Positions 28,925 to 34,146 of a stretch of DNA of 35,102 bases are shown one piece after another; within the stretch, counting starts at the first letter, position 1; the number at the start of each line of letters is the position of its first letter. Source of the DNA: Promethearchaeota archaeon (lineage in GTDB: Archaea > Asgardarchaeota > Thorarchaeia > Thorarchaeales > Thorarchaeaceae). Position numbers and translations under genes: made by a program. The DNA lies in contig JBHLPF010000031.1 in assembly GCA_048939765.1 (NCBI GenBank), positions 8,306 to 43,407 on the forward strand, given 5' to 3'. The notes beneath the pieces were generated by a model. It was not told the DNA's origin and did not search any database. It worked only from the letters and a program-made list of their open reading frames with translations.

Positions 28925-29966
28925 GCAAAATCCAATCAACATACTCACGGCAATGGGGATGCAGATTAATGAAGCCATAACCGACGGGAGATTTCCAACA
29001 ATAGATATTCCTAATCGAGGCACAGATAATCTTGAATTCGATCCAGAATTGGAGCAATTTGTGCTTGGAAACTCTCGAGTTATGAGAAACTCAAGCAATC
29101 AGAAACATATCCGAAGTTTTGCTCAACTCATATGGGTGGCATATTTCGCGAAGCAACTCTTGAAGAGTAATCGGACAAGTTCATTGAGGGACCTATATTA
29201 CTCCAGTGAAGCCTTTGGAGTAAGATTCAGTGACCAAGCGGAATCAGACCGCATCGTTACGGACCTTGAGTGTTTGACAGGTAAACCGCGTGAGGTCTTT
29301 GGTATCTTCCCGGAGGAACACTCGGCCATTTTTGGATCAGTCAAGATGAGCTACACAGTCCCTGGATATGAAGGACAAGAGGTTGACCTGACCTTGAGTC
29401 CTGATGGCTTTCCAATAGGACGGGCCCTGATGACATCTGAGCCTCTTGAAACAGATGCAGAGATGATTTTGGCGGTTGAGTCTGGTGGTATGTTCTCCCG
29501 ACTGATTGAAACCTTGGCCTGGAAACGCTACCGTGCGATTCTTGTACAACTTGGGGGCCAACCTCCAAGGTCCACACGTGCTCTGATGCGAACACTGCAT
29601 GAGGCCTTCGGACTCCCTGTGTTTCTATTCACTGACGGTGATCCCTGGGGGATGCATATAGCTCAAGTTGTGAAGAGTGGCAGTGCTAATGCCGCTCACA
29701 TCCCAGGTCTGACAATACCAGCCGCTGAGTGGATTGGAGTGACCCCAGCTGACATCCAGGACTACTCACTTCCATCTGAACCAATGACTGGCGCAGACCT
29801 CAAACGACTAGACGAACTTGCACGGGATGTCAGATATGCAAGAAAAGATTGGCAGAAACACATTACTGAGTTTCAAGGGCTGCGAAGAAAAGCTGAGCAA
29901 CAAGCCTTCAGTAGATATGGAATGGACTTTGTAGTCGACACGTACCTTCCTGACAAACTACAATGA
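28917..29966 (+). CDS. top6A: DNA topoisomerase VI subunit A
   Basis: LRDLYY catalytic Tyr, TOPRIM AVE and TDGDPWG, KAEQQA; overlaps top6B by 8 nt. Confidence 0.95.
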   Translation: MSEQNPINILTAMGMQINEAITDGRFPTIDIPNRGTDNLEFDPELEQFVLGNSRVMRNSSNQKHIRSFAQLIWVAYFAKQLLKSNRTSSLRDLYYSSEAFGVRFSDQAESDRIVTDLECLTGKPREVFGIFPEEHSAIFGSVKMSYTVPGYEGQEVDLTLSPDGFPIGRALMTSEPLETDAEMILAVESGGMFSRLIETLAWKRYRAILVQLGGQPPRSTRALMRTLHEAFGLPVFLFTDGDPWGMHIAQVVKSGSANAAHIPGLTIPAAEWIGVTPADIQDYSLPSEPMTGADLKRLDELARDVRYARKDWQKHITEFQGLRRKAEQQAFSRYGMDFVVDTYLPDKLQ

Positions 29967-31010
29967 TATCACTCTAGAGAATGCCAGCAGGAACACTGCA
30001 CTAAAGGCAATAATTGCCTGCAGTAGTATCAACAGAGCAACGTTCCTCTTCTCTGTGACATTCTCTGAAAGGTATGGCAGCAACCAATACATGGTGAATG
30101 GGCCCTCGACTTCGAGAGTGCCGTCTTCTCTTGGACTGGCAAACTTCACATACTCGATTCCTCTGCGGTGTACATGGAGTCTATAAAAGATGTATAGGAG
30201 AAAATTGAGACCGAATGGTGCATATAGGAAAATGGCCAGTCTGTCCATGTTTCCTAAGATGAGTGCCGTAGCTATGGCTGCACCCATTGGAAGTCTTCCA
30301 ACGTCTCCAGGCAGTATCCTTGCGGGATATCTGTTGAAAATGAGAAATGCAATGGATGCACCAAGAAGTGCTCCAGCAACTACTCCTGAGTCAAGAAGTG
30401 CCGGCGTGGTTTCGATTCCATCAGTGAGTGATAGGAGCACCACATATAGAATAAGAGCTGCAGAGTTGATTGACGAGAGGCCTGCCTCTAGGCCATTCAT
30501 TCCTCCATACATATTGGTGGAATCGATGATGAATGTCATCATCAGAGGAATTATCACGAGGGGATAGAGCACGCCAAGGTCAACAGTCCCAATTAATGGA
30601 ATTGACATTGTGGTGGTACCTACTTGCATGGCCATCATCGGGATGGATGCAAGCATTGGGAGTGCTACCTTGGTCCTATTCTTGAAGTCAAGATTATCAT
30701 CCAATAACCCAATCATGCCTGCAAGGAGGATTGAAACCAGTGCAGCTAAGAGTCCTGTATCGACTTCTTGACCCTGAAAGGTTGTTATTCCAATCACGAT
30801 TAGCAAAGATGCCACGATCGCAAATAGAACTACAAACCCGCCACCTTTCGGCACCTCTGGCTTGTTGGATTTATGGACATCCACTCCTACTATGCCCTTT
30901 TCTTTTAGGATCTGGATTATGCTAGGCATAGTAAAGAGTACTATCAAGAATGCAAGAATGATACCTATGAGGACGGTCAGCAATTGGGCTTTCTCCTTTG
31001 CCGGGCACAA
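29958..31010 (-). CDS. UDP-GlcNAc:dolichyl-phosphate GlcNAc-1-P transferase (DPAGT1/Alg7/AglH-like, MraY family)
   Basis: GVDVHK...VPKGGG, GLLDD, NMYGGMNGLEAG, FNRYPARILPGDVG. Confidence 0.88.
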   Translation of the reverse strand: MCPAKEKAQLLTVLIGIILAFLIVLFTMPSIIQILKEKGIVGVDVHKSNKPEVPKGGGFVVLFAIVASLLIVIGITTFQGQEVDTGLLAALVSILLAGMIGLLDDNLDFKNRTKVALPMLASIPMMAMQVGTTTMSIPLIGTVDLGVLYPLVIIPLMMTFIIDSTNMYGGMNGLEAGLSSINSAALILYVVLLSLTDGIETTPALLDSGVVAGALLGASIAFLIFNRYPARILPGDVGRLPMGAAIATALILGNMDRLAIFLYAPFGLNFLLYIFYRLHVHRRGIEYVKFASPREDGTLEVEGPFTMYWLLPYLSENVTEKRNVALLILLQAIIAFSAVFLLAFSRVISL

Positions 31011-31167: not shown

Positions 31168-34146
31168 TTGAGCCTGCTGCATAGACGGATAGGGACAATC
31201 GCGATAATGGCGCTATTTTTAACAAGTGGCGTCCTCGCTTTGGTTCCCTCAACAGGAACATGGGACTCTAACAATATGGCTCATGATGCAACGCAGCTAA
31301 GCTCAGTGGCCGAGTCCTCGAACCTTGTATCAGTTGCATTTGCGGACCGACACTATGGAGCTGCTGACGGGATTATTGACCCTTGGGAATATGCGTCTAA
31401 CTACACAGATCCTGTGACTGGTATAACGGCGTATCTGGAACATAACGGTACGAATCTCTATCTCGGATTAGAGGCTCCGACTTCTGGCTGGATTGGTGTG
31501 GGCTGGCAGAACTATACAGATGGCTTCACCACAGCTGGGCTGAACAACAGCGATCTAATCATTGGTTATGCGCCAGGCACTCCATCAGATGAATTCTGGA
31601 GGGCAATTGGCACCGACTCTGTGACAGTTCACTATATCTTGACTCTTCCCAACGGTACAATACTGCAGGAAAACGATTTTCCAGATGACGAATCAACAGA
31701 CGAGCTAGCTAATCTTCCCTCGCTTGCAATGTATCGAGAATCAATCTTCGGAATGAGAATCGGTGAGGTGCGTCACTTCATAATTCCTGCGACTGAGGCC
31801 TATACTGATCCGACTCACAACCTCTATGGACTTGACCTTGAATATGAAATAACTCTTACGAGAATAACTAGAGCAGGAACAACAAGGAGAGTGAATCCTG
31901 CTGATAAAAGTCAGATCGTATACAGCGATGAACACGGTGTGAGCACCCTCCAGCATATTGCCGATGTTAATCAGGATAGAATACTCTCCGCTAATGCATC
32001 AGATGATGGCGCTACTACTCAAGTGGAATACGTCATTGCCATGAATACAACAGATTCGGATGACATCCCACTCCTCAATAGCACCGATTTCATGTATCCG
32101 TTCCTCTTTATGTTCAGCAATACAGAAAACACTGCTGACCTTCCTACTCTACGCACCCACTGGTCTGCAACTCCAAGATTGCAGCTGGTTCCGAATGCAG
32201 GTCCCACCCTTATCATAGAGAGTCCTTTCTCTGGAGCGACTCTGTCATGGATTGCAGCTATTGAGGTCAACGCCACTGATAACACTCGGGTAGAGAATGT
32301 CCAATATCGATTGGATGATGAAGAATCATGGAATGATATGGCATTCAATCAAGAAACTACGTTCTGGGAAGCTCGTTTGGATCTGACCGACTACGAGGAG
32401 GGCCCTCATACTATCTGGTTCAATGCTACAGATCCATCAAATGCGACAGGCACTGCTTCTGTTGACTTCAATTTGGACCGTCCATTCATTCCTCTGCTTG
32501 GAATGCGCCTTGATGTGGATAGAACTATAGGCACAGAGTCATACATGCGAACCAGAGTTACGGACAAGTTCACTGTCACCAACAACGGCTCTTCTGTGAT
32601 ATCTGCAATAGAGATGTATCTTCCAATGGGGTGGGAATCACACCTGCTTTCAGTGTCTGCAAAGGATCAAGGCGGCATTGAACTAGAGGTAGTTCGCCTT
32701 CAAGACCTGCATGGAATGCTACGTTGGCGCATTCATTTCGCTCAGTCAGTCAACTATGAGCAGTCCTACATACTTAGCGTGACGATGCAGATACATTCTC
32801 TCTACACAATGACTGACAGCACGAGCAAGGAGTATGAATTCACCTTCCTCAAGTTTCCAGTGATGCCTTACGTCATCAGACATGCATCTCTCGCAATGTC
32901 ATATCGGACAGGTGATTCGCAGTCTGCCAATTATCCATCTCCGGACTTCACTGCATCGAATCTAGCTCCTCTCACAATTGAGGAGTTTACCAATGGGTTC
33001 ACATCCTACACGCCGCACATTGTAGCTGATCGTACAACAGTTGTCGTGGTAGACCCTTGGGAATGGCTCTCATACAAGGAAACAATTCATGTTGACAACA
33101 TTGGACTATCACCAGAAAGTCGGCTTACATTTACAGTACCTGCCTATACAACAAATATCAAGGTCTATGACCACGTTGGTTTATTGGTTCAATCAAGACT
33201 TACGATAGAAGGCGATTGGAATGTTTCCAGGCAGATAGGCATCACCCTCTTGGAAGATAGGTTTGGGCCACAGCAGTTCCTGCCCGGCTATTCCTATGAA
33301 TTCAACATAGAATACATAGTTCAAATCAGCAAGTACGAAGAACTGGCAGTAGGCGGCAATCTTCTCGATATTCCATTTGGAGCACTTGACGATATCTTGA
33401 TCCAGCACCACCGTGTTGATTTAGTTCTGCCCTATTCTGTAAATACCCTGAGTGTTTCTGGAGAATACAGGCTATTGCATGGTGTATTTGACACAACTCT
33501 GATATATAATATGTACAACACATCCAACTACAATCCAATAGAAATACTGCTCCTGTATCAGGTATCCCCCCTCATCGCCGCAAGGCCCCTCGCCCTCACT
33601 ACAATTGTAGGTCTTCTAGCTCTTGCATATGTTTCCTATAGAGGCGTGCGCCTAGATATTGAGGGAGGTGAGTTTGATAAGGAAGACCATGTAGTCGAGG
33701 AGCAGCGCCAGACCGGAGCCCCACCAGAACTACTTCGCGAATTCGCAAACCTCTACTCAAGGAAGACCGCCCTCAATATGGACCTTGAGAAATTGGAAGC
33801 TGCAAGAAGGCGAGGCAAGGTGAAGAAGAGGGAGTTCATGATTCGTGAGCGAGATATCAAGTCGCAGCTCGATACGATTGACTCCGATCTTCCTAAGGTA
33901 AAAGAGGAACTATCGGCTTATGGTGCCAGATACCGTGATATGGTATCTCAGTTGGAGCTTTATAACGAGCGGATTGAAGGTGCGAAAGCAGGACTTCGTC
34001 AGCTTCTGCTTCGGAAGAAGAAGCAGCGAATCAGTCGAGTTGCCTTCGAAAAGTCCCGTCAAGACTATCTCAAGACGATTCAGAAAGCGACAAGTGCGAT
34101 TGACCGTACTCTTTTGACCATCCAAGAGGAAGCCGGCGACCTTTAA
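31168..34146 (+). CDS. Ribophorin-I (OST1/RPN1)-like type I membrane protein with N-terminal DOMON-like, FKBP-like and Ig domains
   Basis: Signal peptide. DOMON-like GWIGVGW..DLIIGY. FKBP-like VTVHY..GMRIGEVRHFIIP..AY. Ig-like VNATDNTRVENVQYRLD. RPN1-like R..VDPW.....ETIHVDN...VP......VYDHVG...RF. One TM, then a basic helical tail. Confidence 0.7.
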   Translation: MSLLHRRIGTIAIMALFLTSGVLALVPSTGTWDSNNMAHDATQLSSVAESSNLVSVAFADRHYGAADGIIDPWEYASNYTDPVTGITAYLEHNGTNLYLGLEAPTSGWIGVGWQNYTDGFTTAGLNNSDLIIGYAPGTPSDEFWRAIGTDSVTVHYILTLPNGTILQENDFPDDESTDELANLPSLAMYRESIFGMRIGEVRHFIIPATEAYTDPTHNLYGLDLEYEITLTRITRAGTTRRVNPADKSQIVYSDEHGVSTLQHIADVNQDRILSANASDDGATTQVEYVIAMNTTDSDDIPLLNSTDFMYPFLFMFSNTENTADLPTLRTHWSATPRLQLVPNAGPTLIIESPFSGATLSWIAAIEVNATDNTRVENVQYRLDDEESWNDMAFNQETTFWEARLDLTDYEEGPHTIWFNATDPSNATGTASVDFNLDRPFIPLLGMRLDVDRTIGTESYMRTRVTDKFTVTNNGSSVISAIEMYLPMGWESHLLSVSAKDQGGIELEVVRLQDLHGMLRWRIHFAQSVNYEQSYILSVTMQIHSLYTMTDSTSKEYEFTFLKFPVMPYVIRHASLAMSYRTGDSQSANYPSPDFTASNLAPLTIEEFTNGFTSYTPHIVADRTTVVVVDPWEWLSYKETIHVDNIGLSPESRLTFTVPAYTTNIKVYDHVGLLVQSRLTIEGDWNVSRQIGITLLEDRFGPQQFLPGYSYEFNIEYIVQISKYEELAVGGNLLDIPFGALDDILIQHHRVDLVLPYSVNTLSVSGEYRLLHGVFDTTLIYNMYNTSNYNPIEILLLYQVSPLIAARPLALTTIVGLLALAYVSYRGVRLDIEGGEFDKEDHVVEEQRQTGAPPELLREFANLYSRKTALNMDLEKLEAARRRGKVKKREFMIRERDIKSQLDTIDSDLPKVKEELSAYGARYRDMVSQLELYNERIEGAKAGLRQLLLRKKKQRISRVAFEKSRQDYLKTIQKATSAIDRTLLTIQEEAGDL

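Follow-up and report, generated by a model that had tools for sequence, protein, structure and literature searches.

An FKBP-Fold Domain Nested in a DOMON Sandwich Heads the OST1/Ribophorin I Orthologue of Thorarchaeota

What is an FKBP-like domain doing in the middle of a DOMON-like domain, and what kind of protein carries the pair? The question is raised by one ORF (31168–34146, + strand) of the window, the 35,102-nucleotide stretch of Promethearchaeota archaeon DNA analyzed here; an initial annotation, made from the sequence alone, proposed that one domain had been inserted into the other. The FKBP-fold domain does lie in a β-hairpin turn of a DOMON β-sandwich, and this DOMON(FKBP) module, followed by an Ig-like domain, forms an outward-facing head of ~385 residues on the 992-aa Thorarchaeota orthologue of OST1/ribophorin I. 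Ribophorin I counts among the eukaryote-signature proteins found in Asgard archaea; even in eukaryotes, little is understood about its accessory roles. The OST1 context is decisive for how the function of the FKBP/DOMON module is read.

A guest FKBP and its DOMON host

The peptide taken for an FKBP in the initial annotation is found at 31603–31866, residues 146–233 of the ORF. In isolation, these residues match Pfam FKBP_C (PF00254; gathering cut-off, 21.1 bits) with 25.9 bits (E 1.3e-5) over profile positions 8–93 of 94; a six-frame genome search scores the insert at 24.3 bits, above the cut-off, and homologues reach 26–51 bits. Compared with PDB sequences, the family profile matches FKBP2/FKBP13 (2pbc) over the entire domain (E 3.9e-5), and the insert as a single sequence finds FKBPs weakly (E 0.5–0.8). 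Structure prediction gives a congruent picture: in the AF2 model of residues 30–345 (pLDDT 87.6, pTM 0.83), FKBP chains match the insert and DOMON-fold chains match the flanks. An FKBP fold is an antiparallel sheet wrapped around a short helix, and VIA aligns the predicted insert best with SlyD (Z 12.2, rmsd 1.9 Å, 84 residues aligned), followed by FKBP13 (Z 11.2, rmsd 2.1 Å, 91 aligned), and FKBP2 (Z 11.0). Foldseek returns 45 matches to the head model at E ≤ 1e-3, and all those among the matches listed are FKBP-fold chains. Pfam FKBP_C, VIA and Foldseek support an FKBP core at residues 149–233 (31612–31866, +).

The host is less obvious: Pfam DOMON (PF03351) matches neither the whole protein, nor either flank alone, nor anything in the genome. 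An HMM built from 20 uninterrupted PF03351-positive DOMON proteins, by contrast, recognizes the intact region in two abutting stretches of the model, positions 28–107 at residues 51–135 (78.9 bits) and positions 110–192 at residues 248–331 (31.4 bits); when residues 139–247 are deleted, the pieces fuse into a single match that scores 126.7 bits, vs. at most 4.8 bits for 200 shuffles. Alignment by hhalign to the same 20 proteins (probability 99.7%, E 2.7e-26) contains a single gap, of ~110 residues, exactly at the FKBP. These HMM and hhalign alignments define an N-terminal half (residues 51–135; 31318–31572, +), which ends in the strand LIIGY and carries Leu125, and a C-terminal half (residues 248–341; 31909–32190, +), in which Arg329 occupies the haem-His column; the gap between them corresponds to a linker, the FKBP domain and a second linker (residues 136–247; 31573–31908, +), a segment missing from uninterrupted DOMON relatives. 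Remote matches that cover both flanks are PF03351-positive (E 1e-12 to 9e-44). The profile of the uninterrupted DOMONs finds nothing significant among PDB sequences; in VIA, the modeled fold matches the γ subunit of EBDH (2ivf_C; Z 15.9, 168 aligned, rmsd 2.8 Å) over model residues 25–313, i.e., across both flanks, followed by Nxr γ (7b04_C, Z 15.2), the DOMON of human DBH (4zel_B, Z 13.7), the CDH cytochrome domain (1d7c_A, Z 12.3), and CBM9 (Z 12.0). Profile alignment, excision and the AF2 model thus confirm the nesting, with the two flanks forming one β-sandwich.

Could this arrangement be an artefact, with an FKBP-like motif arising by chance, or with sequence misassembled or genes wrongly fused in a single metagenome bin? 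The notion could draw on the FKBP_C score of the whole 992-aa protein, which at 19.9 bits falls slightly below the cut-off, and on the failure of the Pfam DOMON and Ribophorin_I models to match it, but it has to contend with the strong fold and profile evidence above and with the recurrence of this architecture: among 77 genomes of the Thorarchaeota order, 74 encode it in one uninterrupted ORF of about 985–1034 aa, and it is also present in ~190 database homologues from independent sources (at least 54% identity, mostly 970–1000 aa). Because the architecture recurs across the order, an artefact has been rejected; its probability is close to nil.

FKBPs joined to a second domain by insertion are known from SlyD and archaeal FKBP17-26, in which an IF domain sits in the FKBP flap, and from trigger factor. 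In the Thorarchaeota protein, unlike in SlyD and FKBP17-26, the FKBP is the guest and the DOMON is the host, the IF chaperone domain is absent, and the location is extracytoplasmic. A literature search found no account of a DOMON + FKBP arrangement or of a Thorarchaeota FKBP-ribophorin, and a survey of archaeal PPIases makes no mention of Asgard.

A ribophorin I with an additional head

The protein begins with a signal peptide or N-terminal anchor (residues 1–29; 31168–31254, +; hydrophobic at 7–29, with a model helix at 4–19) and a low-confidence linker that extends to about residue 51 (pLDDT below 50 for residues 18–51 in the full-length AF2 model). The DOMON(FKBP) module is followed by an Ig-like domain (Big_7, PF17957, E 7.5e-10; residues 346–436; 32203–32475, +), modeled as β strands, and by what Foldseek identifies as the luminal-type β domains of OST1/ribophorin I (residues 446–800; 32503–33567, +). 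A transmembrane helix (residues 801–831 in the model, with a hydrophobic window at 802–820; 33568–33660, +) leads into a cytosolic four-helix bundle (residues 853–989; 33724–34134, +), modeled as four long helices. The N-x-S/T sequons, 14 in all, are confined to the region between the N-terminal signal segment and the transmembrane helix. The full-length model (pLDDT 82.1) has a pTM of just 0.48 and so does not predict how the head is placed with respect to the OST1 core.

The eight best Foldseek matches of this model are all RPN1/Ost1 chains (E 1.5e-26 to 1.3e-17), including 8b6l_O (1.5e-26 over 601 columns), 6s7o_E (3.2e-23), yeast Ost1 6ezn_A (1.9e-19), and 6c26_1 (1.3e-17); the next match is at 1e-10. 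The predicted structure reproduces the RPN1/Ost1 order of two lumenal β domains, one transmembrane helix and a cytosolic helical bundle, and positions 824–970 of the family profile match 8whn_A, a “Ribophorin 1 superfamily protein” (E 1.1e-6). Pfam Ribophorin_I (PF04597) has no match at E ≤ 10 in the 992-aa protein or its genome, so the OST1 identity rests on the fold, the homology of the tail, and orthology; precomputed annotations place PF04597 on several homologues with 55–87% identity. The bundle of MK-D1 OST1 binds ribosomes (PMC11417166); its Thorarchaeota homologue, judged by sequence, appears to be of the same ribosome-binding type and is conserved more strongly than any other part of the protein (0.80 identity to distant members). 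The genome also encodes STT3/AglB (174.9 bits), and the only other FKBP found in it has no signal peptide.

How much of this protein is shared with other OST1s? The C-terminal ~560 residues have the same order as Asgard and eukaryotic OST1 (MK-D1 OST1, 607 aa, 8WHN; human RPN1, 8B6L/6S7O; yeast Ost1, 6EZN), to which the Thorarchaeota protein adds ~385 N-terminal residues, the DOMON(FKBP) and the Ig. Matches to the OST1 core are found in 268 of 301 genomes of the phylum, typically one per genome; outside the Thorarchaeota order, the ORFs are mostly 575–700 aa among the matches listed and lack the entire head, which is confined to this order among the sampled genomes. An OST1-attached DOMON devoid of the FKBP was found neither in the 301 genomes of the phylum nor among 1.84 billion representative proteins. 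Where present, the head is well preserved: identity to distant members is 0.69 for the N-terminal half of the DOMON, the best-conserved extracellular part, and 0.61 for the FKBP, vs. 0.41 for the lumenal core of OST1.

A haem-less host and a partly remodeled pocket

In the initial annotation, the DOMON was thought to have exchanged its Met ligand for Leu, kept a late His, and become non-heme. We take the two columns in question to be the haem ligands, as in CDH-type DOMONs; in the 20 uninterrupted DOMONs, the first holds Met (14) or Lys (6) and the second holds His (18). The Met column is occupied by Leu125 here and by Leu in 80 of 81 homologues, as had been proposed. The His claim does not hold here: at the homologous column the 992-aa protein has Arg329 (65 of 81 homologues have His and 13 have Arg there), and His331, two residues downstream, aligns with Tyr in most homologues. 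Thus, of the earlier interpretation the insertion, the loss of Met and the altered pocket (see below) stand, and the late His does not. In place of the Met/Lys and His that serve as axial ligands in haem-b DOMONs, the protein has Leu125 and Arg329; from these alignments, the axial ligands appear to be lost, Met throughout the family and His in the 992-aa protein, and Met/His-type haem ligation is very unlikely, in support of the non-heme proposal. With the ligands gone, haem binding was rejected as the main reading.

The nearest known DOMONs are haem-b domains (1D7C, 2IVF_C, 7B04_C) and uninterrupted Asgard DOMONs (e.g., Hodarchaeales P0134); the Thorarchaeota DOMON shares the β-sandwich (Z 12–16) and has clear sequence homology to PF03351-positive proteins. 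It is set apart from both by the residues at the ligand columns, by a ligand loop that is five residues longer and contains two invariant sequons, and by the whole FKBP carried in the hairpin after that loop. DOMON folds devoid of haem ligands are also found in human dopamine β-hydroxylase (4ZEL) and CBM9 (1I82); there is no sequence relation to either beyond the fold, and neither sugar-binding tryptophans nor a metal site can be mapped in the Thorarchaeota domain. Non-haem DOMON modules serve other ligands or act as scaffolds (PMC4846438).

If not haem, could the head mainly bind a ligand or a glycan? Under this explanation, a remodeled face of the DOMON would bind lipid-linked oligosaccharide, nascent N-glycans, or a cell-surface polymer, and the FKBP would be a rigid spacer. 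The idea has appeal because the DOMON superfamily includes sugar binders such as CBM9 (PMC4846438), the ligand loop (G124, L125, N126, N127, S128, D129) is near-invariant even though the haem ligands are lost, and the N-terminal half of the DOMON is so well conserved. A precedent exists as well: the lectin malectin, a β-sandwich accessory module on the lumenal side, works via ribophorin I in animals and plants and ties glycosylation to folding control (PMC9144812); however, malectin is a separate protein of a different fold family, and a lectin role of the DOMON is putative. No sugar-binding residues can be mapped, the conserved N115 and N126 (81 of 81 homologues) are sequons that may simply be glycosylated, and a spacer alone would not keep its pocket positions conserved above the rest of the FKBP (0.93 vs. 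0.72). On balance, a mainly glycan-binding head is improbable.

The conservation of the pocket leads back to the guest. The pocket positions in the FKBP core are Y156, L166, Q167, S176, S185, L186, Y189, Y212, H217, and Y226. The profile alignment bears out that the equivalents of FKBP12 Tyr26 and Tyr82 are retained (Y156 and Y212) and that Phe36/Asp37 are replaced (L166/Q167), and it adds changes that had gone unlisted: F46 to Ser176, V55 to Ser/Ala185, W59 to Tyr189, and F99 to Tyr226. Y156, L166 (F36), L186 (I56), Y189 (W59), Y212, H217, and Y226 (F99) are retained or conservatively substituted, and this set should be enough for a hydrophobic pocket; Q167 (D37), S176 (F46), and S185 (V55) are altered. 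All 81 homologues have Y156, Y189, Y212, and Y226. Fold stability may account for some of the conservation of aromatic residues in the pocket.

Is the pocket still catalytic? The homologue alignment has Gln at the D37 position in 79 of 81 sequences, Ser at the F46 position in 76 of 81, and Ser or Ala at the V55 position, and the strand that bears F46 and F48 is modeled by AF2 as a loop and a short helix; one wall of the pocket is thus remodeled, and catalysis could be lost. This is the starting point for a different explanation, in which the FKBP does not catalyze and instead has an adaptor or structural role: a proline-containing loop from a partner would occupy its pocket permanently, and the head would help to assemble or regulate the OST-translocon, not to fold clients. 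Strong conservation of the whole head would suit such a fixed protein–protein interface, and precedents exist: the pocket of FKBP11 at the human translocon is buried by CCDC134, which was read as an adaptor arrangement (PMC12804085), and FKBP-fold subunits are structural in the Bacteroidota BAM machine, to which the NCBIfam BamJ match and the 9his_I and 9hjm_I matches point. Yet most of the pocket is kept, and its changes are conservative or seen in active FKBPs: TtSlyD, which is active, also has Leu at the F36 position (PMC5034536). Ile-Gln or Tyr-Gln at positions 36/37 occur in free-standing FKBPs too, and the OST1 of the sister family retains the canonical F36/D37 pair, along with V55/I56. 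The analysis also turned up no partner. A pure adaptor is possible, though not likely. AglB/STT3, OST3/6, TRAP, and a surface-layer protein would be the candidate partners. In SlyD, single pocket mutants keep 21–76% of the activity (PMC5034536). The “peptide-binding or weakly catalytic” FKBP of the initial annotation remains a fair reading of the sequence, since the pocket is altered yet mostly kept.

A putative folding helper at the translocon

What would an FKBP pocket do on OST1? The explanation that we favor, with somewhat better than even confidence, is that the FKBP-in-DOMON head would make OST1 a client-binding holdase, and probably a modest prolyl isomerase, at the translocon. OST1 would have the Sec translocon and the glycosyltransferase AglB/STT3 as its neighbors, and the head would hold the FKBP pocket near the exit of unfolded chains on the ATP-free outer side of the membrane. 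With its aromatic and hydrophobic lining kept, the pocket would most likely bind proline-containing unfolded segments; secreted and N-glycosylated proteins would then be the clients of a head that acts as a holdase and probably, to a modest degree, as a prolyl isomerase. The haem-less DOMON would be a rigid scaffold and might offer a surface for a glycan or another ligand. The same pocket could alternatively be used to dock a partner, and in this respect an adaptor role is equally possible, because the pocket of human FKBP11 is buried by its partner and the authors of that work argue against it being an isomerase in that setting.

Membrane-anchored FKBP11, which joins the human Sec61/OST-A translocon (PDB 9N9J/9YGY; PMC12804085), is also the best Foldseek match of the head model (E 3.1e-5; VIA Z 10.6). 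Both proteins would present an extracytoplasmic FKBP tethered at the OST-translocon (a placement that is inferred for Thorarchaeota), with a membrane anchor and a cytosolic element that contacts the ribosome. But FKBP11 is recruited as a protein in its own right, with an FKBP of canonical, stand-alone form, whereas the Thorarchaeota FKBP is nested and covalently part of OST1; at only ~24% identity, the likeness counts as an analogy rather than as evidence of orthology.

Might the head do more? As a working station for folding and quality control fused to the glycosylation machine, it would isomerize or hold nascent chains with the FKBP and read glycans with the DOMON. This extended proposal is doubtful; if it is true, one archaeal polypeptide combines jobs that in eukaryotes are divided among ribophorin I, FKBP11-type translocon FKBPs, and malectin, and the coupling of translocation, N-glycosylation and assisted folding is older than the endoplasmic reticulum.

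The architecture is unusual in itself, with the FKBP as an inserted guest and a host DOMON that has turned from a haem binder into something else. Residues 52–342 make a small, cysteine-free, expressible construct with which extracytoplasmic prolyl isomerization and chaperoning could be studied in relation to archaeal N-glycosylation, and the protein offers an archaeal counterpart for comparison with the recently described human FKBP11–OST-A translocon. Present throughout the lineage and better conserved than the lumenal core of OST1, the head would be a genetically fixed example of a folding helper at the translocon–OST: a close archaeal relative of eukaryotes likely has a protein-folding helper built into its N-glycosylation machine.

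An accessory head on an archaeal OST1

The segment at 31603-31866 encodes residues 146-233 of a single 992-aa ORF (window 31168-34146, + strand), the gene for a Thorarchaeota OST1/ribophorin I. In the full-length AF2 model (pLDDT 82.1, pTM 0.48), a signal helix and a disordered linker lie ahead of residue 53; they are followed by a DOMON domain with an FKBP inserted in it (residues 53-340), an Ig domain (347-436), two β domains (446-800), a TM helix (801-831), and a cytosolic tail folded as a four-helix bundle (853-989; window 33724-34134). Human RPN1 and yeast Ost1 account for the best eight Foldseek matches of this model (E 1.5e-26 to 1.3e-17), ahead of a ninth at 1e-10. The best PDB sequence match of the family profile, built from 81 homologues, falls on the cytosolic tail: it is 8whn_A, “Ribophorin 1 superfamily protein” (E 1.1e-6), which we take to be the cytosolic-domain structure of MK-D1 OST1, and the four-helix tail is homologous to the ribosome-binding domain of that protein. 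A crystal structure of the 607-aa MK-D1 OST1's cytosolic domain has been solved, and the domain is reported to bind ribosomes (PMC11417166). The stretch from the signal peptide to the TM helix contains all 14 sequons of the Thorarchaeota protein, consistent with a head that faces outward and a tail in the cytosol; five (N115, N126, N473, N685, and N784) recur in every one of the 81 homologues. The protein has no cysteines. There are two candidate starts: TTG at 31168, which gives 992 aa and places a basic n-region (HRR) ahead of the hydrophobic core, or ATG at 31207 (codon 14), whose shorter product is matched by 979-aa homologues.

The neighboring genes are archaeal and eukaryote-like, encoding topoisomerase VI A and B, RIO kinase, NMD3, a KH protein, and a GT4 transferase. 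The last, an AglH/Alg7-type glycosyltransferase (Pfam E 9e-28; window 29958-31010, - strand), is transcribed away from the OST1 gene, 157 bp apart, so that genes for the first and the last step of N-glycosylation stand head to head. AglB/STT3 is also encoded in the source genome, as is the only other FKBP_C match, a 275-aa protein on contig C78 (L016:478-1305, + strand) that lacks a signal peptide, starts with 40 very lysine-rich residues, and is probably a cytosolic FKBP of the long archaeal type.

How widespread is the DOMON(FKBP)+Ig module, hereafter the head? Among 300 other Asgardarchaeota genomes, it is restricted to one lineage: the complete head is present in 73 of 76 from the same family and in the only one from its sister family, in ORFs of ~985-1034 aa, and outside these two families only separate DOMON or FKBP proteins are matched. 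The OST1 core, by comparison, has matches in 268 of the 301 genomes; the matches listed from outside Thorarchaeales are headless, mostly in ORFs of 575-700 aa. No OST1 carrying the DOMON but lacking the FKBP turned up in these 301 genomes. A few Thorarchaeota genomes encode a second protein of ~590 aa (locus L014:1034-2821, + strand; protein P0127; G299:C125), in which the same DOMON(FKBP)+Ig head leads to a TM helix at the C-terminus, with no OST1 core; the head therefore exists outside OST1 too. Databases hold ~190 proteins at least 54% identical across residues 30-345, mostly 970-1000 aa long, and those with named sources are from Thorarchaeota or Promethearchaeota. They are called “FKBP-type peptidyl-prolyl isomerase,” “Ig-like domain-containing protein,” or “hypothetical”; many carry precomputed FKBP_C and Big_7 matches, and some Ribophorin_I. 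The head is under strong purifying selection and is better conserved than the lumenal core of OST1: against distant members, the N-terminal part of the DOMON has an identity of 0.69 and the FKBP 0.61, vs 0.41 for the core. The cytosolic tail, with long invariant runs, is the most conserved part (0.80).

An FKBP nested in a DOMON sandwich

The initial annotation proposed that an FKBP-like domain is nested inside a DOMON-like one, and this architecture is confirmed: the insert adopts the FKBP fold and the flanks form one β-sandwich. In a full-library HMMER search with residues 30-345, some proteins match two stretches flanking the insert and are PF03351 DOMONs; others match the insert alone and are FKBP_C proteins. 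Aligned directly, uninterrupted DOMONs lack ~90-110 residues between the IIGY and IVYSDE strands, and when the family profile is compared with that of 20 such DOMONs (99.7% probability, E 2.7e-26), the alignment contains one long gap, located at the FKBP. An HMM of these 20 proteins matches the intact region in two pieces, model positions 28-107 (residues 51-135) and 110-192 (residues 248-331); when residues 139-247 are deleted, they fuse into one piece of 126.7 bits, as compared to 4.8 bits for the best of 200 shuffles. In the AF2 model of residues 30-345 (pLDDT 87.6, pTM 0.83; built on the 81-homologue alignment), the flanks together (model 25-313) superimpose on the γ subunit of ethylbenzene dehydrogenase (EBDH) with a VIA-align Z of 15.9 (168 aligned residues, rmsd 2.8 Å), followed by Nxr γ (15.2), the human DBH DOMON (13.7), CDH cytochrome (12.3), and CBM9 (12.0). 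In the DOMON model, the insertion point falls at a hairpin turn two residues long.

The insert itself scores 25.9 bits against Pfam FKBP_C when isolated (E 1.3e-5; profile positions 8-93 of 94; cut-off 21.1 bits), 19.9 bits inside the whole 992-aa protein, and 24.3 bits in a six-frame genome search; more distant family members reach 26-51 bits. The profile of the 81 homologues matches FKBP2/FKBP13 (2pbc) across the whole domain (E 3.9e-5). Every Foldseek match listed for the model of residues 30-345 is an FKBP-fold chain, the best being FKBP11 in a human translocon structure, with FKBP13/FKBP2 at TMt 0.71-0.74; in VIA-align, model residues ~114-209 match SlyD (Z 12.2, rmsd 1.9 Å, 84 aligned) and FKBP13 (Z 11.2, rmsd 2.1 Å, 91 aligned). 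Among the nearest free-standing relatives of the insert are Asgard (Kariarchaeaceae) proteins of ~190-225 aa (P0165, P0216, and P0238). P0165 has a hydrophobic segment at the N-terminus, and all three combine an FKBP, a hydrophobic segment, and a C-terminal Cys-rich tail (CxxC...CxxC), a topology reminiscent of FKBP11.

Lost DOMON ligands and a partly remodeled FKBP pocket

In the uninterrupted DOMONs, the first ligand column is Met (14/20) or Lys (6/20) and the late column is His (18/20), a pattern that would fit haem-b DOMONs, presumably as in CDH- and EBDH-type domains. Uninterrupted DOMON proteins with Met or Lys plus His (P0134, P0133, P0136, P0141, and P0144; at least one, P0134 from Hodarchaeales, is Asgard) are likely to be haem-b proteins that are secreted or sit in the membrane. 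The OST1 family has Leu at the first column in 80 of 81 members, Leu125 in the 992-aa protein, bearing out the proposed Met-to-Leu change. The late His, by contrast, was misplaced: the residue noticed was His331, which aligns with Tyr in most homologues, and the homologous position 329 is His in 65/81 but Arg in the 992-aa OST1 and its closest relatives. By alignment, this protein has thus lost both ligand positions. Compared with uninterrupted relatives, the ligand loop has five extra residues; it is nearly invariant (G124-L-N-N-S-D129), with sequons N115 and N126 present in 81/81. Since the DOMON superfamily takes in CBM9 (PMC4846438), sugar binding is possible; a further possibility is that the DOMON may be lectin-like, as is malectin, a partner of ribophorin I (PMC9144812).

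Is the FKBP pocket still functional? Mapped by HMMER alignment to FKBP2 and alignment with free-standing FKBPs, and in FKBP12 numbering that we take from general knowledge of its sequence, the pocket is partly retained. The Tyr26 and Tyr82 equivalents (Y156 and Y212, both 81/81) are kept and Phe36/Asp37 are replaced, as had been judged by eye, by L166 (I/L in 71/81) and Q167 (79/81). The changes go further: F46 is S176 (76/81), V55 is S185 (A/S in 66/81), W59 is Y189 (81/81), and F99 is Y226 (81/81); I56 corresponds to L186 (80/81) and H87 to H217 (65/81). The strand that bears F46/F48 in usual FKBPs is a loop and a short helix in the AF2 models. Conservation is 0.93 at pocket positions vs 0.72 in the remainder of the FKBP. 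A sequon within the FKBP, N162, is conserved in 71/81. Position F36 is naturally Leu in active TtSlyD, and SlyD with one pocket residue mutated retains 21-76% of activity (PMC5034536). Ile-Gln or Tyr-Gln at 36/37 also occurs in free-standing FKBPs (P0148, P0191, and P0238), one of them otherwise canonical. The sister-family OST1 (P0128, 1018 aa; L013:660-3716, - strand) keeps canonical F36/D37 and V55/I56, which suggests that the ancestral insert was probably a standard FKBP; the pocket is derived and partly remodeled in the family that contains the source genome. In the sister-family OST1, moreover, the FD motif is followed by 11 inserted residues, and the DOMON Met column holds Phe, not Leu.

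What the head may do

No paper describing a DOMON(FKBP) head, an accessory nested module, on OST1 was found in the literature. If OST1 adjoins the Sec channel and AglB, as we infer, unfolded chains on the outer face, which is free of ATP, would meet the FKBP pocket of the head. In the main rival reading, the FKBP is a non-catalytic adaptor; such a role has been put forward for FKBP11 at the human OST-A translocon, where CCDC134 buries its pocket (PMC12804085). With the pocket instead presented to emerging chains, the head's role would be that of a holdase, perhaps also of a modest prolyl isomerase.
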